DNA from: Eledone cirrhosa
Taxonomy: Eukaryota
Direction: 5' to 3'
NCBI GenBank assembly: GCA_964016885.1
Contig: OZ024743.1
Span: 199,268,001 to 199,332,000 of the forward strand
Length of the DNA stretch: 64,000 nt
A model generated the notes under the pieces. It was not told where the DNA came from, searched no databases, and was given only the letters and a program-made list of their open reading frames with translations. Shown piece by piece: positions 3,340 through 62,843 of the stretch. A program made the translations under genes and the position numbers. How positions within the stretch are numbered: the first letter of the stretch is position 1; each line of letters begins with the position of its first letter.

Positions 3340-3960
3340 TGACATGCGCAAAAGTGAGAAATGTTAGCACCAACCAGAAAGGGTTTCTGTAAAAGAACGA
3401 TATAAAATCTTGTGGGACATGATCATCCAGTGCGACCATCTTGGCCAGAAAATCTGACATTGTTGTCCTAGAAAAAAAGAAAAACAAGACAAATTTTATT
3501 AATACTTAAAATCTGTTTTATTATTCGTATCGAATGAAAATATAACAGATATAAACATATAATAAATACAATTAAATATTGCTAGGAACCTTACAAATAT
3601 AATGCACAAAAATATATGATCACAACGAGAGCAAAAGAAAATAAATAAACAACCATCAAGAAAAAAATGAGGAAATTGTGGATAATTTTAAATGTAGAAG
3701 TGGTAGCGATTTTGGTGGCGCACAGGGAGCAGTTAGTAAAAGGTTAACTACAATGGCGTGAGAAGCTAGAAATTACCATCAGGACGGGATTGTTTCAGAA
3801 AACAGCCTTGCTTGAAACTGCAATGATTCTAAGGAGGATGTTGGAAATTTGAAGGAGAAGGAATCATTCAAAGGACCTTTAGGCACTGGAATTGGCTCGT
3901 TCATTTGGTATAGTGTCGGTATAACATTTGTCAGAACAAAAACGTAACGAATAAAATAAT
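3340..3960 (+). mobile_element. degenerate R4/Dong-type LINE 3' fragment (restriction-like endonuclease C-terminus)
   Basis: Translates across frameshifts to HQPERV..YKILWDMIIQCDH..ARKSDIVVLEKK and ..EKLEITIRTGLFQKTALLETAMILRRMLEI*. This matches the ILWD..IQTD..RPD and LQK.ALLGTA.ILR motifs of R4-clade elements, and it ends in an (AAT)n tail. Confidence 0.8.
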
Positions 3961-9626: not shown

Positions 9627-10282
9627 TTCATTTATTTGCCACAAGGGCACCAGATGTAGGGAAATTTACAAGCATAGGTTACATAGAGTGTGATGCTGAT
9701 TTTCATGGAAATTGAACGACAACAACAACAATAATAATAATATTAATAATAATAATAATTTCGTTATTATTGTAATAATAATACTCAGAATGACAACATG
9801 ATATCAAAGAAGCATTCCTATTGGAAATCTATAGAATGAGTTTATCAACGATTTTGTATATCAGAAATGTACAAAACAGTAAGATTGTTATTTGTGGCAA
9901 GAAAGAGAGAGGGGAGATGGGGGGGAAAGGAGGTTGTTGCTGTTGGTGATGTTTATGTTTTTGTCTTTTATTGTTGCTGCTGTTGTTTTTGTTTTGGAAA
10001 TAATCTTTTGCAACCTCCCGCTCACATTCTCACACCACATGGAAGCTGAAAGTGAAAATGAAAGCTGTGGTGGTGGTGGTGGTGGTGGTGGTGGTGGTAG
10101 GAGTGGAATTGGAGGTGGTGAGAGTAGTAGTGGAGGTAAGTGTGGTAAGTGGTGATGGTTATGTTGTAATTGTTGGTGGTGTACTTGTTGTTGTAGTACT
10201 TGCTGGTGGTAGTGGTAATGGTGTTTGTTGTTGTTGGTAGTGGTGCTGGTGCTGTTGTTGTTGTTGTTATTAGTGGCTGTGG

Positions 10283-11070
10283 TGGAGTTAACACTGGTGC
10301 TTGTAGTGATGGTAATGGTGATGCTGGTAGCGCTGGTGCTGTTGGTGGTGCTTATGTTGTTGGCTGTGGTGATGGTAACACTGGTGCTGGTAGTGATGGT
10401 GATGGTGATGCTGGTAGTGCTGGTGCTGTTGGTGGTGCTTATGTTGTTGGCTGTGGTGATGGTAACACTGGTGCTGGTAGTGATGGTGATGGTGATGCTG
10501 GTAGCACTGGTGCTGTTGGTGGTGCTTATGTTGTTGGCTGTGGTGATGGTAACACTGGTGCTGGTAGTGATGGTGATGGTGATGCTGGTAGCACTGGTGC
10601 TGTTGGTGGTGCTTATGTTGTTGGCTGTGGTGATGGTAACACTGGTGCTGGTAGTGATGGTGATGGTGATGCTGGTAGCACTGGTGCTGTTGGTGGTGCT
10701 TATGTTGTTGGCTGTGGTGATGGTAACACTGGTGCTGGTAGTGATGGTGATGGTGATGCTGGTAGCACTGGTGCTGTTGGTGGTGCTTATGTTGTTGGCT
10801 GTGGTGATGGTAACACTGGTGCTGGTAGTGATGGTGATGGTGATGCTGGTAGCGCTGGTGCTGTTGGTGGTGCTTATGTTGTTGGCTGTGGTGATGGTAA
10901 CACTGGTGCTGGTAGTGATGGTGATGGTGATGCTGGTAGCGCTGGTGCTGTTGGTGGTGCTTATGTTGTTGGCTGTGGTGATGGTAACACTGGTGCTTGT
11001 AGTGATGGTGATGGTGATGCTGGTGCTGTTGGTGGTGCTTATGTTGTTGGCTGTGGTGGAGGTAACACTG
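10283..11070. repeat. 87-bp minisatellite, about 9 copies, built from GGT/GAT/GCT triplets
   Basis: The ORF track shows a 29-aa periodicity (TGAGSDGDGDAGSTGAVGGAYVVGCGDGN), and the copies are nearly identical. Confidence 0.95.
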
Positions 11071-13398
11071 CTGCTCGTAGTGATGGTGGTGTTGGTGGTG
11101 CTAGTGATGCTTATGCTGTTGTTGATGGTATTGGTGGTGGTGGTGGTGGTGGTGGGGTTGATGGGGAGAATGATAATGGTAATGAGGATGAATGTCTCAC
11201 TAAACACTAAACAAGACCGTCAGGGAAATGGGATATTCGATGACGGAAACCATTTTCAATGAATCATTTCATAGAAAATAGCATCTCTTTTATGAAATTG
11301 GAAACTGTTAATCGGCACATATTTTCATCATTATTTTTCCTTCCTAGTGTCAAAAGGTAGCAAGAGTAAAAAAAAGAAACAAAAAAAATCACAAATAAAT
11401 AAATAAAATTAAAAAAATAAAAAAACAATCATAATAAATATATAAATAAAATAATAATTATCATAATTACAAAATAAAAAAATAAAATAAACATAGTAAA
11501 ATGAGAAATTGTGACAGTATCCAAATATATATATTTATATATATATATATATATACATATGAAAAAATATATATGCATATATATAAATATGTATATATAT
11601 GAAAATCATTAAGTATGTTTGTATGTGTAAATGAATAATAATTATTATTATAATGATGATCATGATGTTGGTGGTGATGATGGTAATGATAATTAAGGTG
11701 ATGGTGGTGATGATAATGATGAAGAAGGTGATGATGGTGATAATTATGGTGATGGTGATGATGATAATGATGAAGAAGTTGATGATGGTGATAATTATGG
11801 TGGTGGTGGTGATGATGATGGTGATAATGGTGATGAAGGGGAAGTTGGTGGTGGGGATGGTGGTGGTAGTGGAAGTGGTGCTGGTGGTGGTGATGATTAA
11901 AACAACAATGTATTCGTTATTTTTGTAAGATTTGCAAGATATATTTGCAAGCATGCAGTGTCATAGACAATCTAATGACATATTAATTTGTGATCTTTAA
12001 CAGAGTGTAACATTTTTTTTTTTCTTAATAATTTTTTCCAGATTATAAAACACTGAATTTATTTTTTAATTCGAAAATATTAAATAATTAAAAAAATAAA
12101 GCTTTAAAAAGAAAAAAATAATTAGGAAAATATTAAGAAAGGAAGGATGAAATTGGTATGAAATTGGTGTAACGGAAAATGAGCTGATTGTTTCAGAATT
12201 CAGAATTCCTCCAGATGGAATTTAAGGGGAGGGATACCTTAGCATTTGAGAAAGAATTCTAGAAAAAAATAAAAAATATTAAGAGAGAAAAAAGCAAGAA
12301 ATTCTTCTGTGTTCAATAATGTTGTCATACAACCTGTGACTCTCAAATGAAATCATAATTAGGACACTGAGGTCATCAATTTTAGAGGTGAGAGAGTAGA
12401 GATTTGGCAGAGTTGAGGTCTGGAGGGAGGGATATTATGTTGTTTTTTTCACTTTTGCTAGTAAGACAATGTTAATGCTTTTATATTTGAAAATAGCATT
12501 TCATAAATCTATCGTCATCATCATCATCATCATTGTTTAACATCCATTTTCCACACTAGATGGGTTGGCCTATTTGAAGCACGTTGGGTATGGTGACTGT
12601 GTATTGCTTATGCAGAACTGTTTCTGGCTTGGGTTCTATGGCTGGATGCCCTTACTAATGACAACCACACACCCAAACACATATATATGTGTGTGTGTGT
12701 GTTTGAGTGAGATAGAGAGAGTGTATGTATGTGTGTGTGTGGGTTTGTGTATGTGTGTGTCTCTCATTCTGTCTGCCTGTGTGTTTATGTGTGTATATAT
12801 ATATATGTATATGTATATATTTATCATCATCATCATCATCATCATCATTTTACGTCCGCTTTTCCCTGTTTGCAAGGGTGGGACGTGAACTGATTCTAGC
12901 TTATAAATTCATAACCTTTCTTTCAATGTTCAAGCACATATCACTATGAATCCTCTAATGTCTATTTTCCATTCTCACATCAGTTAGACATGTTTTCACT
13001 GTCTGAATTAAGATAGGTCAGCTGACTTTCACCCTCATATATTGCATTCTGGCTTGTTTTCTGTGTCTGAATATCTTTTCTCATGCCACCTGCTTTACAG
13101 TTCATACTGGGGACATAGGTTCTATGGCTCATGACTTCCCTAAAACCAACCAAATTACAGCATGTACTAGAATATTTTCTCATGATTCTGACACTGCCAA
13201 CTTACAGGGTAGACTAGGTAATTTGATCGTGGCCCTCAGCAGTACCATTTTAAAGATTGGGTTGGTTATATTTTTATTGGGACACCATCACTCGTGAGAC
13301 ATTGACAAGATGAAGAAGAGAGAGAGAGAGATGCAGACAAACAGATATATATATATGTTCTTTTAGTGGCTTCAGTCATGGGATTGTGGCCATGCTGG

Positions 13399-13698: not shown

Positions 13699-15404
13699 CA
13701 TGCTGGAGAACTGCATTCAATTATTTTGAACAATCATATCAATCCCAGCATCTGCATTCAATCTGGTACGTAATGTATCAATTGATATTTATCAAATAGC
13801 TAAGTTGCCTTTTTGACGTAACACTGAATTTTAGACAAGTGTAAACATGTGCACAGATATGGACACATACCTAATACACATGTATATATCATTATCATCA
13901 CCATTTTATATATATATATTTATATATATATATACACACACAAAGATGGAATCATGTGGAGGGGTACTCAGCTTTAAACACTCTCAAAATGTGCTTACTT
14001 GAATCATCATCATCATCATCCTCATTGTTTAACGTCCATCTTCCATGCTAGCATTCGTTTGATGGGCTGTCCCGTTGTTAGACCATGAGGTCAGGGTACC
14101 ATGTTTTGCTCACACAGAACTGATTTTGGCCTGGTTTCTACAGCAGGATCCCTTCCTAACGCCAACAGCATTTACAGTGGTATATATATATATATATATA
14201 GATATATATATATATATATATACATGGATACATATGTATATATACGCACAAACATATATGAAATATTTTTGAATAGTGGATTCAAGACATGGGGTCACAC
14301 TTAAGTGTGTGTATGTATGCCTGCACATGTATGTGTTCATGTGGATGTGTACATACTTGTGTGTGTGTGTGTTCTATTTGTTCTTTTCTCTGCAGAGAAA
14401 TTTAAGTGTCTCTATTGATCAAGGAAACAGTTTACATGGAAGAATATAAAAAATGATTAAGTCAATGAATGATAGAAAGAAAGAAAGAAAAACCAAAACA
14501 AAAACATAATTGAATGTTCTCAAATTATCAATGATGAAATTAGGACGCAAATTGAGTTTTATTTGATACAGCAAATATTTTAAAACCAAACATTATAACA
14601 TGTTAATCAGTTAATTAACATGAAATTAAACTAATATAACTATTTTGTAACTACAATTCTAATTAAATTCACTGCTTCTGTATTAATTAGTCTTGACAAT
14701 AATCAACAATTTAGAAACACCTATTAAAATAACTAACTATTTACTTTATAAAGATAGCTTAACAAATCAGTGTAGACTGAAAGACTTGTTGCTGGTTTTA
14801 ACTTTTAATGATTAACCCTTTAGTATTTAAAGGGTTAATTAAACCGTATCCGGCCAGAATTCTCTCACCTCTTTCTGTTCAAACTGGCTGCTCATACTGA
14901 TATTAAGGTATTGTTGTCAAAATAAATAACATCAATATCTCATTGATTCGATATTATGTGAGATAAAGCCTTTACCATAGAAATACAATAGTATATATAG
15001 AATAATGTAAATGTAAAAGATTTAAGTGTAAATGCTTCTTAGTTTCCAAGACTTCATCAGAGTGGTTGATTTTGGGATTTTGTTGATAAACTAAGATTGG
15101 ATAAACTTGATAAATCAAGAGAAAGAAGAGAAACTGAGTACTTTGGGTGTTGGGAATGCAAAACAATGTAAATAACATTATCATCATCAACAGCAGCAGC
15201 AGTATTTTCTGTGTATTTTCTATGCTTACATGGGTTAGATACTGTCATAGCCTGAGTCAGGCAAGAGAAGTGACTTTGTCTTTCTCATAGTTTCCATTCT
15301 AATATATCCACATTCTGAATGCCCCTCATAATGCCAACCAATTCATGGCATGCATTGGGTGTATTTTATCATGACACCAGCGATACAACTTGATAGAGAG
15401 GACT

Positions 15405-15660
15405 AGGTGCATTTTATTGTGACACCAGCACTACCACTTTACAGTGTGGGTTGGGTACATTTTATTGTGACACCAGCACTACCACTTTACAGTGTGGGTT
15501 GGGTACATTTTATTGTGACACCAGCACTACCACTTTAACGTGTGGGTTGGGTACATTTTATTGTGACACCAGCACTACCACTTTAACGTGTGGGTTGGGT
15601 ACATTTTATTGTGACACCAGCACTACCACTTTAACGTGAGGGTTGGGTGCATTTTATTAT
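15405..15660 (-). repeat. 48-bp minisatellite (about 5 copies) derived from the RTE/SINE 3' region
   Basis: Unit TTTTATTGTGACACCAGCACTACCACTTTACAGTGTGGGTTGGGTACA, preceded by degraded tail motifs at 15210-15340. Confidence 0.8.
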
Positions 15661-15804
15661 GGAAATCCAATTCAGTTATGGGTTAGATTCTACTTCTTAA
15701 TAAAGTATACCATCTCAATTCAGAGGTGTACAGTATCCATATGAAGAGAAATATATATATTTATATATTTTTATAGAGAGGGGGGGGGTGTATATATATA
15801 TATA

Positions 15805-16622
15805 TACTAGCTGAGGTACCCGGTAATACCCGGGAGCAGGGGTATTCCCAGTTCCCATTAAAATACCCAATGCCTCTCAGACCAAAAATGAAATCAAAAT
15901 ATAGGACGGATAATGAAAAGCAAAGCCAAATTCATTTACGAAACAATAATACAAACAAATATTGTTCATTGCATTGTTCAAGCGAAAAAATGTTTGTCAG
16001 AGAAGTTGAGTATTGCTATAAGGAAAACAATAGAACCCCCATTAGGGTGTCTTAATATTATTGAAATTTGCTGAAATTTTGTGAATAGGCATCATATCTT
16101 GTCATTTATCTATGGTTTAAATTTCATATAAATCAAAGGGAAAAAATGTTCAGTGGGGTTTTGTGCCCCCAGGGAACCCTTTGATTAAAATGAAATATAC
16201 TTATCAAAGTACCCTGGGCAATGTAGTTTCAGAATATATATGGTTATTGGGGTTTATATCCAAAACCATAGTAGGAGTTCGTGAAATATTGTTCCATTTA
16301 TTGGCCAAAGTTTTCACTATAGGGGGTTTAACCCCCATTAGGGTGTCTTAATATTATTGAAATTTGCTGAAATTTTGGGAATAGACATCATATCTTGTCA
16401 TTTACCTATGGTTTAAATTTCAGATAAATCGAAGGGAAACAATTTTCAGCGGGGATTTGAGCCCTCGGGGAACCCTTCGATTAAAATAAAATATACGTAA
16501 GAAATGAAATAGGCATAATCCCCACACACGTGTCAAGTTTCATCAAGATCGGTTTAGTAGATTTTGAGTTTTAGGTTCACAAACAAATCTACAAACATAC
16601 AGAAATTGCCATTTATGTACAT
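15805..16622 (+). mobile_element. Helentron/DINE-1-like non-autonomous rolling-circle element with internal ~296-bp duplication
   Basis: Starts TACTAGCTG..ACCCGGTAATACCCGGG and ends CAAGTTTCATCAAGATCGG..(ACAA)n..TTTATGTACATAT. The internal block AACCCCCATTAGGGTGTCTTAATATT... repeats at about 16034 and 16330. Confidence 0.7.
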
Positions 16623-16626
16623 ATAT

Positions 16627-17021
16627 CATCATCATCATCATCACAGTTTTATGTCCGCTCTTCCACGCTAGCATGGGTTAGACGGGTTGTCCTGTTGTGG
16701 GCAGTGTCCGGTCGGCTAACCTTGTCTTGCTCATACGGGAACAGATTCTGGCTTGATTTCTACACCTCGATGCCCTTCCTAACACCAACCTCATTTACAA
16801 TGAGTGGTGGGTACTTTTTTGCCGTGGCACCTCCACAACCATTTTGCAGTGGAATGATAGGGACCCCAATCCTATCATCTCATTTCTACAGCTGAGTAAA
16901 CTGGAGCAATGTGAAATAAAGTGTCTTGCTCAAGGAAACAACACACCACTCGGTCCAAGAATTGAACACACAACCTTTCGATTGCAAGCCCAATGCTCTA
17001 ATCACTAAGCCAGGCGCCTTC
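16627..17021 (-). mobile_element. full-length CORE-SINE with RTE-derived tail (type A)
   Basis: Head, CORE domain, a region shared with the LINE 3' UTR, and a (GAT)n tail. Confidence 0.9.
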
Positions 17022-17228
17022 ACACACACACAAAAGAAATAAGATTTCTCTTCAAGCATAGCTTTATACAATATGTATAGAAATTTTGTATTTCTAAAGA
17101 AATACGGTTTTAGGAAGCTGCAGCTATGCAAACACCGGGGGGGGGGGGGGCTAACGCCCTCTGAAGATGTCCAGCAGAAGCAAGGGGGACAACCGTCTAT
17201 GCATTTCAGGCTATAAATATATATCAAA

Positions 17229-17404
17229 TATATAAGAACCCGAGAGCAAATATTTATTAAAATAACAGATTAAAGTTTAAGCAAATCCTTGCTTTCACCC
17301 TTAACGGGATTTTCAGAAAATCCTGTTAAGGGTGAAAACAACGATTCTTTGATTAAACTTTAATCTGCTATTTTAATAAATATTTGCTCTATGGTTTTAT
17401 ATAT
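17229..17404. mobile_element. palindromic element with hammerhead-like core
   Basis: Arms AGAGCAAATATTTATTAAAATAACAGATTAAAGTTTAA / TTAAACTTTAATCTGCTATTTTAATAAATATTTGCTCT around a centre TTTCACCCTTAACGGGATTTTCAGAAAATCCTGTTAAGGGTGAAA. A half-copy lies at about 58525-58580. Confidence 0.75.
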
Positions 17405-17472
17405 TTTAGTATATATATTAACCTTATCGAGCCGTCATCGGATTTTAGTCTTCACATTTATTATTATTACTA

Positions 17473-17707
17473 GCAGTCCACAGTGTAATGTGGCCGTGTA
17501 GGTAACACGGTAAAAACCTCCCAGTCCACACTGTAAACGTGGTTGGTGTTAGGAAGGGCATCCAGCTGCAAAAAAAAAACTGCTAGGGACGCTTCCATGT
17601 GGGCGAGACATGGTCTTCCGACCATTTCTGCATCAAATGGAACAAAACCCTCTAACCCATGCTAGCGTGGAAGATGGACGTTAAATGATGATGATGATGA
17701 TGATGAT
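17473..17707 (+). mobile_element. RTE 3' UTR-derived fragment with (GAT)n tail
   Basis: Shares CAGTCCAC..GGTTGGTGTTAGGAAGGGCATCCAGC..CCCATGCTAGCGTGGAAGATGGACGTTAAATGATGATG with the LINE tails. Confidence 0.8.
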
Positions 17708-17740
<33 letters not shown>

Positions 17741-18065
17741 TGAACTGATAAAATGCACTCAATACATGTTGTAAAATTGTTGGTAATAGGAAGGACAGCC
17801 AGCTGAAAAATACATGCCAAACAAAGCAAGGACATTTGTGACAAAAACATTACAGGATCCCTAGTACTGATGCCTTGATAGAATGTACTTGATGCACTCT
17901 GTAGTCAGCAGGAATTTATGGAAGTGACATGCAGTCTTCGGCATGTCTGAGAGAGGTCAGTAGCTTCGATTATATACAGACATAGTCTAAAAATAGACAT
18001 TCAATCTTCACTAGCAGTATAAGAGCACATTAAATGATGATTATGAGGATAATATACATATATAT

Positions 18066-18560
18066 CATCATCATCATCATCACCATCATCAGGTTTAGCG
18101 TCCGTGTTCCACGCTTGCATGGGTTTGGACGGGGGTTTTCCCACTTGAGGCAAGAGTGGTTGTCTTGCTCGCATAGGACTGTCTGGCGGGTTTTCTACAG
18201 TTGGATGCCCTTCCAAACACCAACCACATTTACAGTGTGGGGCTGGGAGGTTTTTACCGTGTTGCCTACACGGCCACATTACAGCGTGGACTGTCTGGCG
18301 GGTTTTCTACAGCTGGATGCCCTTCCTAACACCAACCACATTTACAGTGTGGGGCTGGGAGGTTTTTACCGTGTTGCCTACACGGCCACATTTACAGCGT
18401 GGACTGTGTGTTTTTTGTCGTGACACCTACACGATCTCATTTGTTTCGGCCTGGATGTTGTGGGACCAACATAACTTTACATTGAAAGGGGCGGTGTGGG
18501 TGGGGTGGAGGTGGTGGGACGGGGGTGTGTTTTGATAGAGATGCCTACTGACTGTAGTAG
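18066..18560 (-). mobile_element. 5'-truncated RTE copy (3' UTR only) with internal ~117-bp duplication
   Basis: Colinear with the 3' UTR of the RTE fragment at 30333-30830. Confidence 0.8.
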
Positions 18561-18916: not shown

Positions 18917-18973
18917 GAAAACTCTGATGATATCTTTTGAAGCCATTTCTATATTAAAAATTATATATATACA

Positions 18974-21240
18974 CAATTTTCCCAGCCAGCCATCCATCTA
19001 ATCTACGAAGGTATTTTAGCCTACATATTGTCGTTAATATTATGATGTTCCCTGCTGTATTAGCGTTAAATTTTCCCTGCTGTATTAGCGATAAATTTTC
19101 GAGGGTTTCTCTTAGTAGCTTTTTTCATGACGTTATTATTGTTAATTTTACTGATGTAGTATTAACTTATTAACTTGGATATTTACCATGCGGTATTCTA
19201 ATCCTATTGTATCTCTCTCAGTTATTTACCATGCGATCCTCAGTTCCTACCCCCCCCCTCTCTATGCACTTCTTTAAGGCTTACTACCCTGTCTTTAACC
19301 TAATTCATTCAATCTGAAAATATTGAAGAGATAAGACACTTTCCCATTCTTCTCTGCTAAAATGTATCACTAGAGCTGATTCCAATTTTCCCAGCCAGCC
19401 ATCCATCTAATCTACGAAGGTATTTTAGTCTACATATTGTCGTTAATATTATGATGTTCCCTGCTGTATTAGCGTTAAATTTTCCCTGCTGTATTAGCGA
19501 TAAATTTTCGAGGGTTTCTCTTAGTAGTTTTTCATGACGTTATTATTGTTAATTTTACTGATGTAGTATTAACTTATTAACTTGGATATTTACCATGCGG
19601 TATTCTAATCCTATTGTATCTCTCTCAGTTATTTACCATGCTACCCTCAGTTCCTACCCCCCCCCCTCTCTATGCACTTCTTTAAGGCTTACTACCCTGT
19701 CTTTAACCTAATTCATTCAATCTGAAAATATTGAAGAGATAAGACACTTTCCCATTCTTCTCTGCTAAAATGTATCACTAGAGCTGATTCCAATTTTCCC
19801 AGCCAGCCATCCATCTAATCTACGAAGGTATTTTAGCCTACATATTGTCGTTAATATTATGATGTTCCCTGCTGTATTAGCGTTAAATTTTCCCTGCTGT
19901 ATTAGCGATAAATTTTCGAGGGTTTCTCTTAGTAGCTTTTTTCATGACGTTATTATTGTTAATTTTACTGATGTAGTATTAACTTATTAACTTGGATATT
20001 TACCATGCGGTATTCTAATCCTATTGTATCTCTCTCAGTTATTTACCATGCGACCCTCAGTTCCTACCCCCCCCTCTCTATGCACTTCTTTAAGGCTTAC
20101 TACCCTGTCTTTAACCTAATTCATTCAATCTGAAAATATTGAAGAGATAAGACACTTTCCCATTCTTCTCTGCTAAAATGTATCACTAGAGCTGATTCCA
20201 ATTTTCCCAGCCAGCCATCCATCTAATCTACGAAGGTATTTTAGCCTACATATTGTCGTTAATATTATGATGTTCCCTGCTGTATTAGCGTTAAATTTTC
20301 CCTGCTGTATTAGCGATAAATTTTCGAGGGTTTCTCTTAGTAGTTTTTCATGACGTTATTATTGTTAATTTTACTGATGTAGTATTAACTTATTAACTTG
20401 GATATTTACCATGCGGTATTCTAATCCTATTGTATCTCTCTCAGTTATTTACCATGCTACCCTCAGTTCCTACCCCCCCCCCCCCTCTCTATGCACTTCT
20501 TTAAGGCTTACTACCCTGTCTTTAACCTAATTCATTCAATCTGAAAATATTGAAGAGATAAGACACTTTCCCATTCTTCTCTGCTAAAATGTATCACTAG
20601 AGCTGATTCCAATTTTCCCAGCCAGCCATCCATCTAATCTACGAAGGTATTTTAGCCTACATATTGTCGTTAATATTATGATGTTCCCTGCTGTATTAGC
20701 GTTAAATTTTCCCTGCTGTATTAGCGATAAATTTTCGAGGGTTTCTCTTAGTAGTTTTTCATGACGTTATTATTGTTAATTTTACTGATGTAGTATTAAC
20801 TTATTAACTTGGATATTTACCATGCGGTATTCTAATCCTATTGTATCTCTCTCAGTTATTTACCATGCTACCCTCAGTTCCTACCCCCCCCTCTCTATGC
20901 ACTTCTTTAAGGCTTACTACCCTGTCTTTAACCTAATTCATTCAATCTGAAAATATTGAAGAGATAAGACACTTTCCCATTCTTCTCTGCTAAAGTGTAT
21001 CACTAGAGCTGATTCCAATTTTCCCAGCCAGCCATCCATCTAATCTACGAAGGTATTTTAGCCTACATATTGTCGTTAATATTATGATGTTCCCTGCTGT
21101 ATTAGCGTTAAATTTTCCCTGCTGTATTAGCGATAAATTTTCGAGGGTTTCTCTTAGTAGTTTTTCATGACGTTATTATTGTTAATTTTACTGATGTAGT
21201 ATTAACTTGGATATTTACCATGCGACCCTCAGTTCCTACC
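18974..21240 (+). repeat. tandem array of ~408-bp units (5 full plus 1 partial) directly upstream of the RTE LINE
   Basis: Units start CAATTTTCCCAGCCAGCCATCC at 18974, 19383, 19791, 20199, 20610 and 21016. They differ mainly in poly-C length and a few substitutions or small indels. Confidence 0.95.
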
Positions 21241-21489
21241 TCACAATTTCCCTCCCCCCCCCCCCCACCCCCACACACCACCATAGTCTATTCGACCAAT
21301 CAAACCTAGCATGCCATTTCCACTGCTGCTGCTGCTACTACCTGCCTAACTAACTCTCTCCTCCTCTGGCGCATCCCAACACACCCTGCCATTACCCCAC
21401 CACCACTGTCCTTCTAGCCCTCAATTTTCCCACCGTTATGGATGGATGAGCTGGGAATACACGAGCAACTCTGAATCAATAGATGAAAT

Positions 21490-22572
21490 ATGAATCTGCG
21501 AGCTACCAAGCACCCACGTGAAGCGCCAACCCAGAGACCCTCCCCTACGAGTGTCGACAAATGCCCAAAACTCCGAGTTGGTACCATCAATGTAGGCTCA
21601 ATGAAAGGAAGAGCAGGAGAAATCGTAGAAATGCTAGAGCGAAAGGAATTTGATGTATGCTGTGTGCAAGAGACTAGATGGAGAGGAGGGTCTGCTAGAG
21701 TCCTTGTAGGAAAAAGCCAGTGCTACAAATTTTTCTGGATGGGAAATGACGATGGGATGGGTGGTGTAGGTATACTATTAGCTGACAAGTGGGTAGATAA
21801 AGTAATCTCAGTGTACAGGGTAAATGCAAGAATCATTAAACTCAGACTAGTCCTGAATAAGACAATTACCACAATAATATCAGCTTACGCACCCCAATCG
21901 GGGCTGCCAGACGAACTTAAGGATAGGTTCTACGAGTCCCTAATACACACTACTGCTCTAACAGACGACAAGGACTTCCTAATCATTGCAGGAGATTTTA
22001 ACGGACACGTAGGTAAACACTGCGACGGCTTCAATAGAGTACATGGAGGCCATGGAGTTGGCACAAGGAATGAGGAAGGATTCAGACTTCTAGAATTCTG
22101 CGACGCCAATGACATGTCGATATGTAACACAAACTTTAAAAAACCCGACAACCACCTGATCACCTATAGATCAGGGGAGCACTCTAGTCAGTTAGATTTT
22201 ATCCTCATCAGAGGACGTGACAGATGGACGGTCGTAAACACAAAAGCCTTCCCTAGTGAGGAATGTACATCCCAACATAGCTTAGTTGTCAGCGACCTCA
22301 CGGTCAGAACTAGACGAGCCCTGAAACAGAGGCCAACCTGGAGAAGAAAGATCTGGAAGCTGAAAGTCCCCTCAACCAGTAACAGATTTAAAGATATTTT
22401 ACTCAACGCCTACGACAGTAAAGAAGAACAGATAGAGACATTTAATGTAGAAGAGAACTGGGAGTTCCTAAAAAATAACTTACTAGAGGCGACGGATGAG
22501 GTTTGTGGCTGGAGTAAGACCTCAAGCAGGAGGAGAGTGACTTGGTGGTGGAACAATAAGGTAGATGAAGCA
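21490..22572 (+). pseudogene. RTE LINE ORF, N-terminal part: APE-type endonuclease
   Basis: Motifs GTINVGS, CCVQETRW, ISAYAPQ, IAGDFNGHVG, SQLDFIL and TSQHSLV. The frame shifts at about 22572. Confidence 0.92.
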
Positions 22573-24605
22573 AGGCCAAGAGACAGGCATGGAAAGAATG
22601 GAAGAACGGGGGGAGCAGGGTACATTACATAGAGACCAAGATGGAAGCTAGGCGACAAGTATACTTAGCTAGGAGGGAAGCAGAGGATAGAAAATTCAAG
22701 CATGTTTTACAACGTGAGGACCAGAAACAGGAGGTATTCAAGATTGCGAGGCAGTGTGTCAGAGATAGTTGTGATGTCATTGGAGAGAAGTGTATCCGGA
22801 ATGATAAAGGTGAGCTTGCCCTCACAAGTGCTGAGAAGAAAGATGCATGGAAGAGTCATTATGATAGATTACTAAATGAGGAGAATGCATGGGAAGAAGA
22901 GACCCTACCCCACGTAGACCCTATAGAGGGACCAGCAGTACAAGTCAGCGGCAGCGTAGTAAGTAAGGCAATCAGAGATATGAAGATAGGGAAGGCAACC
23001 GGTCCATCGGGTATAGCTGCCGAGATGCTGAAGGCATCTGGGTCTGTAGGTCACACTATAACCACACGTATCGTTAACCAGGTAATACTAGAGGGGGACA
23101 TACCAAAAGATTGGTGCAGTAGCATCATTGTCAACTGCTACAAAGGTAAAGGCGATGCACTAGATAGAGGAAACTATAGAGGTATAAAGTTGATGGACCA
23201 GGTCATGAAAGTAACAGAAAGAGTTATAGCACAGCTGATTAGGGACCGGGTGAATATAGACGAGATGCAATTTGGGTTTGTACCAGGGAAAGGCACCACT
23301 GATGCCCTCTTCCTTGTGAGGCAATTACAGGAAAAGTACCTAGCTAAAAGTAAGCCACTCTACTTGGCATTTGTCGACCTTGAGAAAGCCTTTGACAGAG
23401 TTCCACGTGCAGTAATCTGGTGGGCTCTTAGAAAACTAGGAGTAGATGAATGGCTTGTGAAAGCGGTACAAGCCATGTATAGGGGAGCAGTCAGCAAAGT
23501 TAGGATTGGCAATGAGTATAGCGAGGAATTTAGCGTACAGGTTGGGGTCCACCAGGGCTCTGTTCTTAGCCCTCTCCTGTTCATCATAGTCCTGCAGGCA
23601 ATAACGGAGGAGTTTAAGACCGGATGCCCATGGGAACTCCTGTATGCTGATGACCTCGCACTCATAGCTGAATCTATGGTAGAACTAGAGAATAAATTCC
23701 AAACCTGGAAGCAGGGACTAGAGAGAAAGGGCCTCAAAGTCAACATGACAAAGACTAAGGTCCTTATAAGTAGACGAGAAAACAGAACCCAGATCCCCTC
23801 AGGGAAATGGCCTTGCTCAGTATGTAGGAAAGGTGTAGGTAGGAACTCCATTCTTTGCCCCAAATGCAAACAATGGGTACACAAGAGATGTAGCGGGATC
23901 TCAGGAAGCTTAATTAAGAATGTAGGATTCACATGCAGCAGCTGTGCTGAAACAGCAAGCAAACAGCCACAGGAAACAAGTACCACCAATCTCTGGGAGG
24001 GCCCTGTAGAAACAGTAGACAGCTTCTGCTACCTAGGTGACCGAATTAGCAACGGAGGTGGGTGCTCAGAAAGTACAATAACTAGGGTAAGAACGGGATG
24101 GAAGAAGTTTAGGGAACTACTACCACTGCTAGCTGCAAAAGGCTTCTCCCTCAGAATGAAAGGCAGACTGTATGATGCGTGTATCCGAACAGCGATGTTG
24201 CATGGTAGTGAGACCTGGGCGCTGAAGGTGGAAGACTTACGTAGATTAGAGAGAAACGAAGCCTGCATGCTCCGATGGATGTGTAACAGTAATATACGTG
24301 AACGACAAAGCATAAATGAATTGAGAGAGAGACTGAGCATAAGAGGAATCAAATGCTGCGTGCAGGAGAGGCGGTTACGCTGGTATGGACATGTGATGCG
24401 TATGAAGGATGACAGCTGCATAAAAAGGTGCAGAGCACTAGAAGTTGATGGAAACCGCGGAGTGGGGAGACCCAAGATGACTTGGGATGAGGTGATAAAA
24501 GCCGACCTTACCCAACTACACCTCTCAAAGTCAATGACACACGACCGTGACTTCTGGCGTCACGCAGTAATACAGGGTACCCGACCTCCCATGGGTACAT
24601 GCTGA
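22572..24605 (+). pseudogene. RTE LINE ORF, C-terminal part: reverse transcriptase plus Cys/His finger
   Basis: Motifs NYRGIKL, QFGF, AFVDLEKAFD, GVHQGSVLSPLLF, LLYADDLAL and FCYLG, a CSVC..CPKC..HKRC..CSSC finger, and the RTE-typical RLRWYGHVMR..GRPK.TW end. The frame is open from KAKRQAWKEW at 22572. Confidence 0.95.
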
Positions 24606-25813
24606 AGCATATAAACAATATGCCCCCCCCCCCCACCGCAAGGTGGTCGTGGAGGTGCCACGGCAAAAAAGCACCCAGCCCACACTGTAAAGTGAACGTG
24701 TAGGCGCCACGAAAAAGCACCCAGCACTCACTGTAAATGAGGTTGGTGTTAGGAAGGGCATCCAGCTGTAGAAATTAAGCCAGATCAGTTCCTGTATGAG
24801 CAAGGCATGGTCAGCCGACCAGACACTGCCCACAACAGGACAACCCGTCTAACCCATGCTAGCGTGGAAGAACGGACGTAAAACGGTGATGATGATGATG
24901 ATGATGATGATAAAAATTGCAAGTTTGAAGAATTATTAGATAAAACTTACCCGGTCTTTCCTCTTAGCCCGTAGAAATTAACTAGACAAATAATCAATTA
25001 AACAGAGCTAAGTCTAAAATATAAGTTAGAAGAAAAAATGCATATAAACTTTACCAAAATTCCTCTAGTCCCGACTATTGATAGTTTCACTCATACTTTG
25101 TGGATATGTCCGATCTTGGTATTATCCATGAGGTTTAGAGCTTATCAAAAGACCCCTCATGTTTGGACTAAAATTTCTACAGTGATCGCCGCCACAAAGA
25201 ATTCAAAAATGGCTAAGAATCATCACGTGGCTAGTGGTCAAAGTAGAAGTTTGTGAATGGTGGCCAGGTGGCAGGTAGGCTGGCTGCTAGAAAGAGCAGT
25301 TAGATACTGCCTAAAGTTTTACTCTACCGAACAGGAGTATATATTAAATTCATATGGATATATGGATATATTTAGTATACTGGTTAAAATACCAAAATCT
25401 GATTTTTATGTTTTTACGCTGTACCTCACAATTGTTTTTCTTAAGGAGAGATGGGGGAGAGGGTTATAGGCATCTTAGACCCGATGGCACCACGGTCCTT
25501 GTATACATATAAAAAATAGATAAACACAGACCCTATAAGATCTTTAATAACAACAGCCACAACAAGATGGCAACAAAAACAACAAATCTATGCAAACACC
25601 ATACTATCAACAAAATAGTGAAATACATTTAAAAAATGACAAAAATGGTAAACCAACAAGAAGACACTTAGAAAATGAGTCTTGAGAAGAGGAGAATAGA
25701 TAGTGGGTGGGAGAGATAAATAGCAAGGGAGTCATAAGACAAATATGGGGACCACTAATACACATATACATCCTCCCCCATGTGTGTATGTATATATATT
25801 AGTATATATATAT

Positions 25814-27885: not shown

Positions 27886-28433
<548 letters not shown>

Positions 28434-28439
28434 TATATA

Positions 28440-28974
28440 TATATAAGTATGTATACGTACATACATATAAGTATACAGACGTACAGTAGTATGTATATAT
28501 ATATACATACATGCATATATATATATGTACGTATGGATTCACTGAACACTTATTATAATGCTCGGTGTGTTTGTAAACGAAGTTTCGTTTCATTTTTTCT
28601 GTTTATCGTTTTCAGTACCCCGGCTGATTAACTCACTCGATATGCAAATTAGGCTGCTCAGCCGTTAATATGCATAAGGAAAGTATATACTTTCAGACGT
28701 TCAACCATCTGTCAGGAAGGTATATATTGCTGACGATAGCTAATAAGCTTGAAATTAGTACAGTGTTCCTTTGTCAGTGTTGAACAAATGAGCAACAATG
28801 GTTGCTAGACACTGTACGGCTTAATTCGGGATGTTTGTTTACAAACACACCGAGCATTATAATAAATGCTCGGTGAATCCATACGTACATGTATATATGT
28901 GTGCATGTATGTATATATATACATACTACTGTACGTCTGTATACATATATGTATGTACGTATACATACTTATAT
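28440..28974. mobile_element. foldback element with ~140-bp inverted arms and an internal minimal hammerhead
   Basis: ATATAAGTATGTATACGTAC...CGGTGTGTTTGTAAAC is mirrored by GTTTACAAACACACCG...GTACGTATACATACTTATAT. Confidence 0.8.
28725..28765 (+). ncRNA. minimal type I hammerhead-like motif
   Basis: UAUUG-CUGACGA-U-AGCU-AAUA-AGCU-U-GAAA-UUAG-UA-CAGUG. Stem I pairs with two GU wobbles. Confidence 0.55.
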
Positions 28975-29027
28975 TTAAATAACAGCCGTACTAAGAGTGA
29001 GAAATGAAATTTCGTTTCAATTTTTCC

Positions 29028-29070
<43 letters not shown>

Positions 29071-29466
29071 ATATATACATGTATATACACACATTCACAC
29101 ACATAAACAATGTACACATTCACATTTGCACATTTGTATATGCATGCACATATACAGACACATACGCATTCTCAAATATACAGAGGTATCCAGCATAGCT
29201 GCCTGAAGAGGTATAGATCTGAAATATACTGTGCTGAGTATATCTGTGACGAAATAGATAAACTAACAACAGATACAATAATAAAACTGATATAACATAT
29301 AGGGTAGTTTGTGTGAGATAAGAAGTAGCAAAGCTGGTGTGAAGATAAGTCTAACAAAGAGCTGATAAGACTGAGTATATATGGTATAGTGGTTATATAT
29401 ATTACACATATATGTGTACACTCATATATGTATTGTTCTCTCTCTATTTGCCTATATATACATACA

Positions 29467-29535
<69 letters not shown>

Positions 29536-29636
29536 GAGAGGGTGAGAGTGAGAGAAAGAGAAGGAGAGAAATATATGAATATATGTATATATATGAGTGC
29601 ATATATATGTATGTGTCTGTGTTAAATAGAATATTT

Positions 29637-29682
<46 letters not shown>

Positions 29683-30016
29683 TTATACATATATGCATAC
29701 TTGTATATATATATATATATATGCATACATGTAGGTATATATGTGTGTGTGTATGTGCATATATATATATACATACATCATATTTGTATTTGATTTTCAA
29801 TATACTTGCTGTGAAATTTTGTGTTTCAACATGATATTTTACACATTTTTATACATTGGTAGTGTTATGTTGCCAATAAAGAAAGAAATACAAACATAAA
29901 CACAGCAGTAAGTTTCACTTCAGTTTTATTATTAGTCAGGTAACTAATCCATTACTTAGTTCATTTATTAACCAGATGTTTATTTAATTGTCATATTTAG
30001 CAAAGTTTTTTTGACA

Positions 30017-30246
30017 CACATGTGATGCACATGGAAGCTGACAGCTGGGTGAAGAAATGTCAAGAAATCCCAGTGGAAGGAATACCGCGAAAAACATAGG
30101 TGAAGGTTGTGAGAGCTGACCCTAGATTGCTGAAGCTCACAAAAGAGATGACAAAGGACTGTGACAAATGGAGAGATGCTGTGCTGAAGACAACCTGTTC
30201 CACCCATGCAAGTAAGGAAAGGCGGACATAAAATGATGATGATGAT
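30017..30246 (+). mobile_element. RTE 3' fragment (short-tail subfamily)
   Basis: Encodes HVMHMEADSWVKKCQEIPVEG..., ending GGCGGACATAAAATGATGAT. Related to 62060-62457 and 48780-48935. Confidence 0.8.
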
Positions 30247-30332
30247 AATTCTGTGACCTTCTCAATGATTATTCTTGCAACTTTGTGCCACATAGTTAGT
30301 TTGCTTTTGCTTTATTTACTTCCTCTCCATAT

Positions 30333-31401
30333 TATCATCATCATCATCATCATCATCGTTTAATGTCCATCTTCCATGCTTGCATGGGTTTGGATGGGAG
30401 TTTTCCCACTTGAGGCAAGATTTGTTGTCCTGCTCATATAGGACTGGATGCCTTCCTAACACCAACCACGTTTACAATTTGAACTGGGAGGGTTTTACCA
30501 TGTTACCTACACGGCCACATTACAGCGTAGACTGTGTGTTTTTTTGTTGTGACACTTACACATCTGGCAGGTTTTCTACGGTTGGGTACCCTTCCCAACA
30601 CCAACCATGTTTACAGTGTGGACTGGGAGGTTTTTACCGTGTTACCTACACGGCAACATTACAGCGTGGACTGTGTTTTTTTGTCGTAACACCTAAACGA
30701 CCTCATTTGTTTCGGACTGGATGTTGTGGTACCAACATAACTTCACATTTAATGGGTTGGTGTGGATGGGGTGGGGGTAGTGGGACGGGGGTGTATTTTG
30801 TTAGTGGTGCCTACTGACTGTAGGTTTCGCTTTGTACTTAGGCAAAGCGGGTCTTCTGTATGACTGTGTAGCGCCAAAGATCTCGGTCCAGTGACATTGT
30901 CTTGGAGAGGTGTAAGTGTGTGAGGTCGGAATTTATCAAGTCGTCCCAGGTTTTTCTGGGTCTGCCTACTCCGTGGCTACCGTCTATTTTTATCGCCCTG
31001 CACTTTTTTATGCAGCTGTCGTCTTTCATGCGCATCACGTGACCATACCAACGTAGTCTTCTCTCGAGTAAACAACATCTGATCCCTCTTATTCCTAATT
31101 TCTCCCTTAGTTCGTTTATGCTTTGCCGTTCACGTATATTACTATTACACATCCAGCGGAGCATGCAAGCTTTGTTCCTCTCTAATCTGCATATATCCTC
31201 TACACACAATGCCCAGGTCTCACTGCCATGCAACATTGCTGTTCGTATGCAGGCATCATACAGCCTGCCTTTCATTTTTAGAGAGAACCCTTTAGAGGCC
31301 AATAGTGGTATAAGCTCTCTGAACTTTTTCCATCCCGTTCTGACTCTAGCTACTGTACTTTCAGAGCACCCTCCCCCACTGCTGATTTTGTCACCCAGGT
31401 T
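30333..31401 (-). mobile_element. 5'-truncated RTE LINE, sister subfamily of the 21-25 kb element
   Basis: The [39 protein letters not shown] closely matches the C-terminus of 22641..24605. It has a longer 3' UTR and a (GAT)n tail. Confidence 0.92.
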
Positions 31402-43814: not shown

Positions 43815-44240
43815 TCTATCTTCCATACTAGCATGGGTTAGACGGGTTCCATTTAGAGGTGAGTTGGGTTGAGTGACCATGTCTCACTCATATAGGACTG
43901 TTTCTGGCTGGTTTTCTATGGCTGGATGCCCTTCCTAACGGCAACCACAAAAACAGTGTGGGCTGGGTTCTTTTTGCCATGTCTTTTACACATCCACTCT
44001 ACAGTGTGGGCTGGGTGCTTTTTGCCTTGTCTTTTGCATGTCCACTTTACAGTGTGGGCTGGGTGCTTTTTGCCTTGTCTTTTGCATGTCCACTTTACAG
44101 TGTGGGCTGGGTGCTTTTTGCCTTGTCTTTTACACATCCACTCTACAGTGTGGGCTGGGTGCTTTTTGCCTTGTCTTTTGCATGTCCACTTTACTGTGTG
44201 GGCTGGGTGCTTTTTGCCTTGACTTTTACAGGTCCACTTT
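43815..44240 (-). mobile_element. RTE/SINE 3' region with 48-bp unit expanded to about 6 copies
   Basis: Tail motifs followed by repeated CAGTGTGGGCTGGGTGCTTTTTGCCTTGTCTTTTGCATGTCCACTTTA. Confidence 0.85.
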
Positions 44241-44903
44241 ATGATGATGATAATATCGGATGATCATACTGTGAATACCCCTTCATCATAGTTCTAATCA
44301 ATCAGCAGCATACTATTTTCATTTTATTTTATCTATCTTTATTTATTTGTATATTTATTTATTTCATGTTCAGAAAAAGGGCAATGGTGTATGTTACAAA
44401 TTAGATAAGATACCAACAACAAAAAAAAATTTTTTTTTTGTTTGTAATATTTTGTCTCAGTTTTCTTTTCTTTTGCCAGGTGACAGCTATTATAACATCC
44501 GGTTTTTTTTTTAGTAGTGTGAATATTAGCACCATAGTCAATGTAATACTTTGTATCACAAGATTCTATAGGGCAAGCGAAAAGTGTCAAATTTACCGGA
44601 AAATCTTTTAACCAATGACCCATAAAAAGAGGCGTAAAAAGTGAAAAACCGAACCGACAAGCTTTACCTCCAAACTAGAAATATATAAAAAATAATAAAT
44701 TATATAAACGAAAATTTATTTTTCTTTACTTTTTTATTATATATATATATATATGATTATGCATGTGAGTGTTGTGACCTTTTATTGATCTTCAGACACA
44801 CGCACATTTTATTACTTTCTATTTATGTACGTCTTGTTAGCTATCTCTTTCTAGTCCTTCTCACTCCCTCAATATATATATATATATATATATAATAGTA
44901 ATA

Positions 44904-44943
<40 letters not shown>

Positions 44944-44955
44944 ATGTATATATAT

Positions 44956-44957
<2 letters not shown>

Positions 44958-45004
<47 letters not shown>

Positions 45005-45141
45005 CCGTTTTACGTCCGTTCTTCCACGCTAGCATGGGTTAGACGGGTTGTCCTGTTGTGGGCAGTGTCTGGTCGGCTGACCATGCCTTGCTCATACAGG
45101 AACTGATTTGGCTTGATTTCTACAGCTGGATGCCCTTCCTA
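44958..45141 (-). mobile_element. severely 5'-truncated copy of the RTE LINE 3' end
   Basis: Near-identical to 24750-24910 and has a long (GAT)n tail. Confidence 0.85.
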
Positions 45142-45144
45142 TAT

Positions 45145-45178
<34 letters not shown>

Positions 45179-45210
45179 ATATACATATATTTATGTTCTC
45201 ACACATATGC

Positions 45211-45322
<112 letters not shown>

Positions 45323-45762
45323 CACATATATTTATATTCTTACACACATGCATATGTATTTTATCACCTTCCATATATATATATATATACATTATATATA
45401 TATATGTGCATAATGTGTATGGCTTCATTTCTTTGTATTTCTTCTTGGAAAGTAAACAGGCTTGAGTTAATATCTACAGACAGGCAGTGTTCTGTCAAAA
45501 CTGTAACACAAAAGATACAATCCTGGCAGATATAATATAATCAAAAAGTTCATTGCTAATGGGTGAAAATGTATCTTCACGACAATATGACTGTGTAGTT
45601 AATAAGTTTAATGAGTTTGTTTCCCAGTCACTTGGTTTGGGGTTCCAACCCACTGCTCTTCACACACTGTACGTGTGTTCTCTACTAATCATAGAGACTT
45701 AGTAAGATCATATTTTGTGAGGAATACAGAGAGTAGCATGTAGAGAAGTGTTGGCATGTTAG

Positions 45763-46930
45763 AGGTAAAGGGTAAAGACTCCCTTCTGTCACAAATGACC
45801 ATGGGGCTTACACCTAGATAGTTCTCTTCAGAGGTGCAAGTCCAGGCAAGGTTGTTTGTGGAAGACCAGGAGTCGCCCATACATACCATTCTCCCCCAAC
45901 CATGCCACTAATGTTGTCCAAGGGAAAGGCAATGGCTGATACAGTTTGGCACCAGTGACATCACAACTCATTTCTACAGCTGAGTAAACTGGAGCAATGT
46001 GAAATAAAGTATCTTGTTCAAAATCACAACACATTACTCAGTTTGAGAATAATAAAAATGAAAATATTGTGTACAGTGTTCAGGTGCACTACAACTCATC
46101 AAAAAGTGTATGTATAGTACATAGGGTAATGTACAAACGTCAGGAAAATGAACAGTGCATGAGTCATGTGTGCATATACACATGTGTGCATGTGTATGGA
46201 AGGGTGACATCAGGTGTAGTTTTGGCTAATTTCGGGAAGCTTGAGGGTTTTAAAGGAAGCAGTGTCTCGGCAGCCAACAACTGACGCAGGCAGTTTGTTC
46301 CATGCTTCAGCAACTCTGAGTGTGAAAAAATGTTTCCGAAAGTCATGGGAGCTGTGTTGTATTCTGATTTTGTAGGCATGTCCACGTGTGTTAGACACAT
46401 GGAGATCAAAAAGGTGCTCAGGGTTGTTGTTGATGAGATGGTTAATAACATTGTGGGTGTTTACCAAGTCCATTGCCAGACGTCGGAGCTTCAATGAATC
46501 CATGCCCAGGGAAGCAAGGCGTTCAGAGTATGGTAGGTGTCTGATGGAGGGTATGCACTTGGTTGCATGTCTCTGAACAGTTTCCAGGAGGTCAATGTTC
46601 TGAGCAAGATAGGGGTTCCAGCCTGATGATGCGAATTCCAAGTGTGGTCGTACCATAGCTGTATACAGCTTTAAATAGATGGCTGGAGAGCGGCTAACAA
46701 AGGTCTTGCTGACTGATGCCAAGACACCCTCGGCCTTCTTGACAATCTTAGAGACATGCTTTGTCCAACGCAAATCACTGCTGACAGTAATGCCCAGGTC
46801 ACATTCACAAGAGGACTTCTTGATATCAGTGTTGTGGAGGGAGTATGTGGACGCTGGATTTTTCCTCCCAAAATGCACAACCTCATGATTGCAAACCCAA
46901 TGCTCTAACCTCTAAGCCATACACCTTCAC
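45763..46930 (-). mobile_element. CORE-SINE (type D, ACCTTT-like tail) split by a CR1-group insertion
   Basis: The head is at 46886-46930 and the CORE plus tail at 45763-46050, ending GGAGTCTTTACCCTTTACC on the minus strand. Confidence 0.75.
46051..46885 (-). mobile_element. 5'-truncated CR1-group LINE (C-terminal part of ORF2)
   Basis: The ORF has the motifs DLGITVSSDLRW..LYTAMVRPHLEFASSGWNP..LETVQRHATK..Y.ERL..L..SL..RR..TRGH..FFTLRVAEAWNKLP. Confidence 0.92.
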
Positions 46931-47184
46931 ATGTTAGATGTAAGTAATAAATACAATCGAATGAAATGAAGAAATTATGGTTGAGAGTATGATATACTGA
47001 GAGCATTTTTTAACCAGTGTTTCTCAATGTAGGATTCAGTGAACCTAAGTGTTCCATGATATGAAGTGTCTTTCAATAATATGTAATAAACATTTATGCT
47101 TTCTTTCAAAGAAAAACAACTCTCTCTCTCTAAAATAGTTTTTGTTTCATTTAATGTTTTATTATATTGATGGTGGTAGAGATC

Positions 47185-47560
47185 ATCATCTTCCTCATCA
47201 ATATTTAATGTCCATTTTCCACACTAGCATGGGTAAGAGAGGCTGTTCTTTGTGAGACAGCCAGGCTGGAGGACTATGTTTTGTTCACACAGAACTGATT
47301 TAGGCTTGGTTTCTATGGCTGGATACCCTTCCTAGCATCAACCACTTTATAGTGTGGGCTGGGCACATTTTGTTGTGTCACCAACATGATCATTTTACAG
47401 TGTGGGTTGGGTACATTTTGTCGTGTCACTAACACGACCACTTTACAGTGTGGGTTTGGTACATTTTGTCATGTCACCAACACAACCGCTTTACAGTGTG
47501 GGCTGGGTGCTTTTGTTGTGAATCCAGGATGACCACTTTATTGTGTGGATTGGGAAATTT
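47185..47560 (-). mobile_element. RTE/SINE 3' region with degenerate 48-bp repeats
   Basis: CCACACTAGCATGGG..TTCTATGGCTGGATACCCTTCC followed by repeated CACTTTACAGTGTGGG units. Confidence 0.75.
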
Positions 47561-51991: not shown

Positions 51992-52336
51992 ATCATCATC
52001 ATCATCATCATCATCATTTTACGTCCACTTTTCCCTGCTTGCAAGGGTGGGACGGCAACTGATTCTGGCTTGATTTCTACAGCTGGATGCCCTTCCTAAC
52101 ACCAACCTCATTTACAGTGAGTGCTGGGTGCTTTTTTTCCGTGGCACCTCCACGACCACTTTGCAGTGGAATGATAGGACTCCAGTCCTATCATCTTACT
52201 TCTACAGCTGAGTAAACTGGAGCAATGTGAAATAAAGTGTCTTGCTTAAGGAAACAACACATCACCCGGTCTGAGAATTGAACTCACAACCTTTCGATTG
52301 CAAGGCCAATGCTCTAACCACTAAGCCATGTGCCTC
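51992..52336 (-). mobile_element. full-length CORE-SINE, type A short-tail variant
   Basis: Head and CORE domain, then the RTE-shared region ending CCCACCCTTGCAAGCAGGGAAAAGTGGACGTAAAATGATG. Confidence 0.9.
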
Positions 52337-54030: not shown

Positions 54031-54326
54031 TGTGGGGCATAACATATATATACATACACATATTATGATAATGATATACTCATATATTATCTACCTCGAT
54101 GGAATGAAAGACAAAGTCAGTCTCAATGTATTTGGAACCCAATGTCCAGATGGCCAAAACCAATGTCATGTCATTCTTTCTGACAACTCCACCAATTGCT
54201 TCCATTTATTGGACATTAAATTTAGTATCAGGGGTTTCTTTATTTCATTCATTAGCAGCAATAGCAACAACACCAGTAGTAGTAGTAGTAGTAGTGGTGG
54301 TGGTGGTGGTGGTGGTGGTGGTGGTG

Positions 54327-60880: not shown

Positions 60881-60885
60881 TATAT

Positions 60886-62802: not shown

Positions 62803-62843
<41 letters not shown>

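Follow-up and report, generated by a model that had tools for sequence, protein, structure and literature searches.

The locus raises the question of whether the tandem monomers in front of a LINE in Eledone cirrhosa belong to that element, and how such a 5' region is produced and renewed. We analysed the window, a stretch of 64,000 nucleotides (contig OZ024743.1, positions 199,268,001 to 199,332,000), together with further copies of the LINE. The initial annotation described 5.5 near-identical units of about 408 bp that end some 250 bp before the LINE ATG. Both points were confirmed: TRF reported 5.5 copies with period 408 and 98% matches (18974-21208), and the array ends at 21240 while the ATG lies at 21490. 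The array comprises five whole monomers and a partial sixth (18974-21240), with monomers starting at 18974, 19383, 19791, 20199, 20610, and 21016. The 'unit start' of the annotation turned out to be merely the truncation point of the window copy. At the other end, the partial last monomer (unit positions 1-218, then 262-276) has the same form that terminates most young copies. The window monomers have 36% GC and 8 CpG per 408-bp unit, and an Rfam search of them returned no family. The ORF of the window copy is frameshifted by a 4-bp deletion near 22571. As shown in Table 1, the layout of the element is (monomer)n - partial monomer - tether - ORF - 3' UTR - (TGA)n.

Table 1. Features of the window copy (positions in the window)
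Feature	Position	Strand	Remark
Candidate 5' target-site duplication copy, 8 bp TAAAAATT	18955..18962	+	8-mer recurs at 24911-24918
11 extra TA-rich bases	18963-18973	+	between candidate 5' duplication and array
Five whole monomers (409, 408, 408, 411, 406 bp)	18974..21015	+	
Last, partial monomer	21016..21240	+	unit 1-218 with 8-bp deletion, then 262-276
Monomer arm of predicted long-range RNA helix	21021..21039	+	found in every unit
Non-repeated tether/leader, 249 bp, start C-rich	21241..21489	+	
Tether arm of predicted helix	21438..21457	+	upstream ATGs at 21438, 21442, 21446
15-codon upstream ORF	21446..21493	+	TGA overlaps main ATG (ATGA)
Single LINE ORF	21490..24605	+	Pfam: AP endonuclease, RT, PHD finger
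AP endonuclease domain	about 21583-22287	+	Pfam
RT domain	about 23154-23768	+	Pfam
PHD finger, C-terminal of RT domain	about 23814-23945	+	Pfam
3' UTR	24606..24886	+	related fragments dispersed in window
(TGA)8 tail	24887..24911	+	
Candidate 3' target-site duplication copy	24911..24918	+	same 8-mer as 18955..18962

Two other kinds of repeat were noted in the window. Many 3'-UTR-like matches (62-99%), some with 48-49-bp internal repeats, lie at 14003-18434, 28220-30702, 43819-47517, 51992-54041, and 60877-62888; they are probably truncated copies or a dependent SINE. An 87-bp minisatellite at 10245-11088 (9.8 copies, 95% matches) has two frames open, which is probably compositional.

Genome-wide, exact-word searches gave 763 matches for the ORF start, 4460 for the middle of the ORF, and 1815 for the monomer. 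The ORF was intact in 63 of the 80 fetched copies with both ORF ends, 59 of these 63 ORFs were 3120 nt long, and the intact product has 1039 aa. Mean pairwise divergence between copies was 0.26%. The copies are very young and number in the hundreds, in two families. The element has a single ORF with AP endonuclease and RT and without ORF1, and its 3' tails are (TGA)n, a short tandem repeat. Target-site duplications are short, a 5-bp match being reached at only 7 of 21 non-TA sites. Homologues at 45-55% identity were mostly unnamed among the 120 matches listed, many of these unnamed relatives have a PHD finger in common, and the Atlas clusters carry Pfam labels only; these listings contained no named RTE reference. 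The LINE likely belongs to the RTE group, a label based on architecture and not on a tree.

We then examined how array and LINE are associated. The monomer search yielded 248 matches in 37 scored of 336 candidates. All 36 fetched arrays other than that of the window lead into the same LINE, 35 of them via the tether and one via an internal deletion. Monomer sequence was also found upstream of the ORF in 30 of 30 loci fetched from the 40 best ORF-start matches, a set that partly overlaps the 36 array-picked loci. Among the first 100 ORF-start matches on contig C1, which still include the near-identical pairs L237/L246 and L238/L245, the array was reached in 79. The remaining 21 end within the 250-nt tether, against about 18 expected from the ORF loss rate; LINE copies lacking the array, which the initial annotation had regarded as contrary evidence, are therefore explained as ordinary truncations. 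The first 100 monomer matches on C1 (its first 182 Mb) fall into 34 clusters. Of these, 31 adjoin an ORF-start match, two showed the LINE on fetching, and one joins a 5'-deleted ORF. Monomer arrays without the LINE, the other observation that would have counted against the annotation, numbered 0 among the 36 fetched arrays and 0 among the 34 clusters in the first 182 Mb of C1.

In 75 copies with both junctions, a copy's own 5' and 3' flanks matched better than swapped pairs (0 of 5000 permutations), and the excess held at the 21 non-TA sites (p=0.0002). Clear duplications at the insertion sites were short and often blurred by microhomology. The flank matches enclose array and LINE (n=75), which places the variable monomer number inside the insertion. 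Unit type tracks ORF haplotype, and the distance between units was 2.95 within loci compared with 10.4 between loci (37 loci with at least two whole units). The array is part of the element and is inserted jointly with the LINE, as the annotation had proposed on the basis of the window alone; 36 of 36 arrays and 34 of 34 clusters lead to the LINE.

Several side observations concern the insertions themselves. Near-identical element pairs with the same 5' junction, L136/L067 (G000:C1:421105476, 421112318), L237/L246, and L238/L245, are probably segmental duplicates. A TA-rich microsatellite lies on both flanks at 37 of 75 insertion sites and on neither at 21 of 75, an apparent (TA)n target preference by raw site counts. 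Short inverted monomer pieces at the 5' junction of L065 (4037-4071) and L032 (near 3550-3580, element orientation) resemble twin-priming inversions. In L050, L165, and L037, internal deletions join the monomer or the ORF start to the middle of the ORF. Splicing was rejected as the origin of these three copies, since the junctions are microhomology and not GT-AG.

The 5' ends of the arrays were examined in 94 copies with resolved ends, 46 from C1 via the last-unit junction word and 48 from the first searches. Unresolved ends, duplicates (L067), and L125 were left out of the phase count. The 94 phases showed a uniform spread along the unit (Rayleigh p=0.54, scan p 0.46-0.76), and the densest 10-nt window held at most 7 of the 94 ends compared with 7.2 expected. 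A unit variant with a 98-nt duplication leaves some phases ambiguous, and two ends at position 56 are its artefacts. A fixed start or cleavage site in the unit was rejected, as the phases of the 94 ends were without enrichment. The 46 array lengths on C1 fit an exponential with a median of 1.1 kb (KS p=0.83), in a survival curve that is blurred by age-related shrinkage. Loss amounted to 0.78 per kb of array (77 ends in 98 kb) and 1.0 per kb of tether. In the ORF it was about 0.87 per kb (4460 to 763 matches over 2.04 kb). This ORF rate is derived from exact matches to two words and would be too high if the mid-ORF word also picks up older copies. Loss at the array-tether border was not raised. 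Four copies (L162, L182, L186, and L198) start within about 10 nt of this border, near an Inr-like motif, and provide a weak lead to a start there. We infer that a focused start site would account for at most a few percent of ends. These results show that the array of each copy ends at a random point. Templates would therefore either reach several kb into the array or begin at scattered sites. The uniform ends of typical copies are also compatible with unit copying during reverse transcription.

The longest array spans 63 kb (G000:C1:422727333-422790556, L102-L109) and holds about 169 units. It has 169 anchors, contains 37 unit types among 161 typed units with multi-unit blocks repeated, and terminates in an intact ORF; one and the same TA-rich microsatellite borders it on either side. 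The suggestion in the initial annotation of a satellite born from the 5' UTR was borne out in this array, which shows that the array can grow into a satellite. At a loss of about 0.8 per kb, it was not reverse-transcribed whole. As one array spans 63 kb, arrays therefore likely regrow in DNA. Another array exceeds 14 kb, its 5' end lying beyond the fetched G000:C1718:45001-59200 (L248, L033). In L051, a 6-unit block is duplicated and the pattern stops upstream. Periods of two and four units were found in L035, L043, and L042, with dimers in L035 and L043. The loci L034 and L048 have a common ORF haplotype, unit type, and 9-bp-deleted unit, downstream of which lie 6 and 5 whole units, respectively. 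Unit number thus changes between close relatives, and the common deleted unit indicates that the template held at least that many units.

Changes within arrays were compared with changes in the ORF. L062 has 10 private ORF changes and 1 singleton in 10 units, and in both L062 and L053 the array singletons are fewer than the age of the ORF predicts. Over 14 arrays, singletons amounted to 0.67 per kb against 0.96 private ORF changes per kb; this small deficit indicates that most arrays were not homogenised after insertion. Array growth after insertion is the exception. Array length was greater in younger copies (rho -0.55, p=9e-5, n=45), with private ORF changes as a rough age measure only.

The layout was also examined in related elements. 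In the older subfamilies of family 1 the units are 75-87% alike and several are still tandem. The family-1 subfamilies are 95.5-99.9% alike in the ORF, and the array layout is kept throughout. Their tree is poorly resolved, with good support for 2 of 21 branches. A second young LINE family, with 71-75% protein identity to family 1, has the same layout. Unit sequence lay upstream in 29 of 30 fetched family-2 copies (of 40 scored; L201-L230), with a repeat period of 416-637 bp in 10 copies within the 1.5 kb fetched. Longer fetches showed at least 11 units of a 68%-alike variant in L249 and at least 18 units in L250. The family-2 unit did not align with the family-1 unit (best E=0.059). At L057 (1-2953, minus strand), a family-1 element is nested in a family-2 array.

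The initial annotation tied the array to the LINE leader by two short repeats. One of them, CAATTTTCCCA, does recur in the leader at 21422-21432. The match is weak, being equally good in 62 of 1000 dinucleotide shuffles (p=0.06), and its exact form is absent from the older subfamilies. This 11-nt direct repeat was therefore rejected as a link between array and leader. The other is inverted: the reverse complement of 21438-21457 agrees with unit positions 6-24 at 17 of 20 positions with one gap. This inverted repeat proved real, being equalled by 1 of 1000 shuffles (p=0.001), and it is kept in all subfamilies. Folding of the last unit with the tether predicted a helix between these two arms (16.6 expected pairs) rather than the local hairpin. 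Its window, picked after the match was seen, was the best of 65 along the tether and ORF start. Every subfamily type listed retains the predicted helix (-20 to -33 kcal/mol); z was -2.0 to -4.6 in the seven subfamilies tested, and the helix is weaker in some. Differences between subfamilies, whose tree is weak, include wobble and repairing changes and also mismatches. The unit folded alone gave no strong structure (z -0.4 and +0.6).

The tether arm coincides with upstream ATGs, and a 17-codon upstream ORF with the same stop/ATG overlap was present in the three older copies checked. Three copies of family 2 were folded, and in all three the last unit was predicted to pair with the equivalent ATG cluster (z -2.2 to -2.8). 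In the cross-family control, the family-1 unit paired with the family-2 arm through a shared ATGG repeat (z -2.4), and the reverse combination of family-2 unit and family-1 arm gave no pairing (z -0.5). The predicted pairing suggests that the helix may have a translational role. Alternatively, the inverted match may stem from an old inverted duplication or reflect a protein-binding motif present on both strands.

By analogy with mouse L1, the array likely serves as a renewable promoter. Motif searches of the unit, which is AT-rich, found no CpG island and no TATA match. TCA(G/T)T(C/T) is an Inr-like motif. The unit holds three hits to it and one GCCAT, short motifs that chance gives easily. 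All three sense frames of the unit contain stops, which leaves no coding role for it. A ribozyme in the unit or tether was rejected, with no Rfam match beyond chance, and no Rfam ribozyme family reached E<=5 in the 5' region of family 1 or 2. A 339-nt contig spans a unit-unit junction in an independent run (X5), which is RNA as shown by spliced GAPDH joints. The contig is unstranded and may derive from read-through of introns or from DNA carry-over. The annotation had also asked whether the array is an assembly artefact, and this independent occurrence of the tandem junction speaks against it.

We consider it probable that this young LINE has the array as its open-ended 5' terminus, which is inserted together with the element, ends at random, likely regrows in DNA, and likely acts as a renewable promoter. 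The structure and inheritance of the array are well supported. Since the ends do not pile up and loss per kb does not rise, source transcripts would begin several kb upstream within long arrays, or else at scattered positions. The reverse transcriptase would drop off at about 0.8 per kb, leaving most daughters with 1-3 units, and rare copies with re-expanded arrays would become the next sources. The last monomer, predicted to pair with the upstream-AUG cluster of the tether, may regulate how the ORF is translated downstream of a very long leader rich in AUGs. A more far-reaching version, which we put forward only tentatively, is that these are LINEs without a defined 5' end, with satellite-like sources, DNA-level regrowth, and helix-aided translation of the ORF behind a multi-kb leader. 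The helix in this version would be a monomer-tether pairing over upstream AUGs that two families retain although their units are unrelated.

Other explanations of the array were weighed against these data. An independent satellite beside the LINE, or an assembly artefact, is very improbable: the LINE was linked at every locus examined, flanks match, unit variants are distinct per locus, and the unit junction occurs in an independent run. For typical copies this explanation is refuted, even though assembly errors could affect the precise length of the 63-kb array and inspection covered part of the 1815 monomer-word matches. The array might instead be a passenger, a duplicated piece of an old 5' UTR behaving like a minisatellite, with transcription coming from the host flank or the tether. 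The missing fixed start site and the AT-rich unit without clear promoter motifs agree with this, read-through also yields long templates, and upstream host promoters are reported for some non-LTR elements in the available text of PMC8501958. We nevertheless regard it as unlikely. The layout is kept across subfamilies (ORF 95.5-99.9% alike) while the unit changes by 15-25%, a family with 71-75% protein identity has it with an unrelated unit, no sampled copy has shared host sequence upstream, and a useless tract that is cut back at each transposition is expected to vanish.

The array could also be built at insertion, if the reverse transcriptase, on reaching the 5' end of the RNA, switched back to a matching unit, located on a different RNA or on a circle, and recopied units, so that short-array donors would suffice. 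Uniform 5' phases and unchanged loss per kb are predicted by such a process, as are homogeneity within loci and periodic patterns such as the L035 and L043 dimers; longer arrays in younger copies also agree with it, and expansion during second-strand priming has been proposed for mouse (PMC6454616, available text). However, 63 kb is impossible for an enzyme dropping off at 0.8 per kb, the 6-unit block of L051 has no upstream repetition, two sibling loci have a marked unit in common six to seven units upstream, and Rfam searches found no ribozyme that would make circles. We judge construction at insertion quite unlikely as the general origin of the arrays, and prefer an open-ended 5' end that likely regrows in DNA.

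This 5' end can be compared with several known systems. In TE-derived satellites, a piece of a mobile element expands to a long tandem array with higher-order repeats, whereas here the array remains on an intact element as a normal part of its 5' end. The Drosophila elements HeT-A and TART lose 5' sequence at each round and then replace it. They are telomeric Jockey-clade elements in whole-element arrays; the present LINE has dispersed copies in which repetition is confined to the 5' unit. The layout resembles that of rodent L1, which has tandem 5' monomers in variable number, a roughly 250-bp tether, subfamily monomer subtypes, and unrelated monomers in different families, as this LINE does. 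Monomer-plus-tether 5' UTRs are described for mouse L1Md (A, Gf, Tf) and rat L1 (PMC5381506, PMC6454616, PMC9022269), and in mouse, too, younger copies have more units (PMC9022269), as far as the accessible parts of these papers go. The likeness to a mouse L1 5' region seen in the initial annotation thus stands for monomers, tether, and variable number, but not for a fixed start in the unit or CpG-island units. In the text of PMC6454616 that was available, common truncation sites of mouse monomers match CAGE starts, in contrast to the ends of this LINE, which have no shared site. This LINE further differs from rodent L1 in its single APE-RT-PHD ORF without ORF1, its (TGA)n tail, its AT-rich units of 350-700 bp without a CpG island, and its predicted monomer-tether helix. 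Arrays of more than 10 units occur at 7 of 5765 mouse loci according to the available text of PMC5381506, PMC6454616, and PMC9022269, compared with up to about 169 units here.

Among RTE-type elements, we found no account of such arrays in the openly accessible literature, and the accessible parts of the octopus transposon literature make no mention of them. RTE-2_OV of Octopus vulgaris is described as having a C2H2 finger, where this LINE has a PHD finger, and a 5' UTR of some 600 nt, and the word 'tandem' is absent from the available text of its paper (PMC9115989). In Schistosoma Perere-3, a twister ribozyme fixes the 5' end (PMC8501958, text in part); this LINE has neither an Rfam ribozyme nor a fixed 5' end.

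For mouse L1, the available text of PMC6454616 still describes as unclear how monomer promoters persist when retrotransposition is prone to truncation. In the present element, hundreds of very young copies with marked units make expansion in DNA distinguishable from expansion during reverse transcription. The real 5' ends of these elements will be absent from consensus models made with short reads. These results show the monomer-array design outside L1 and tie the birth of a satellite to a normal part of an intact LINE.
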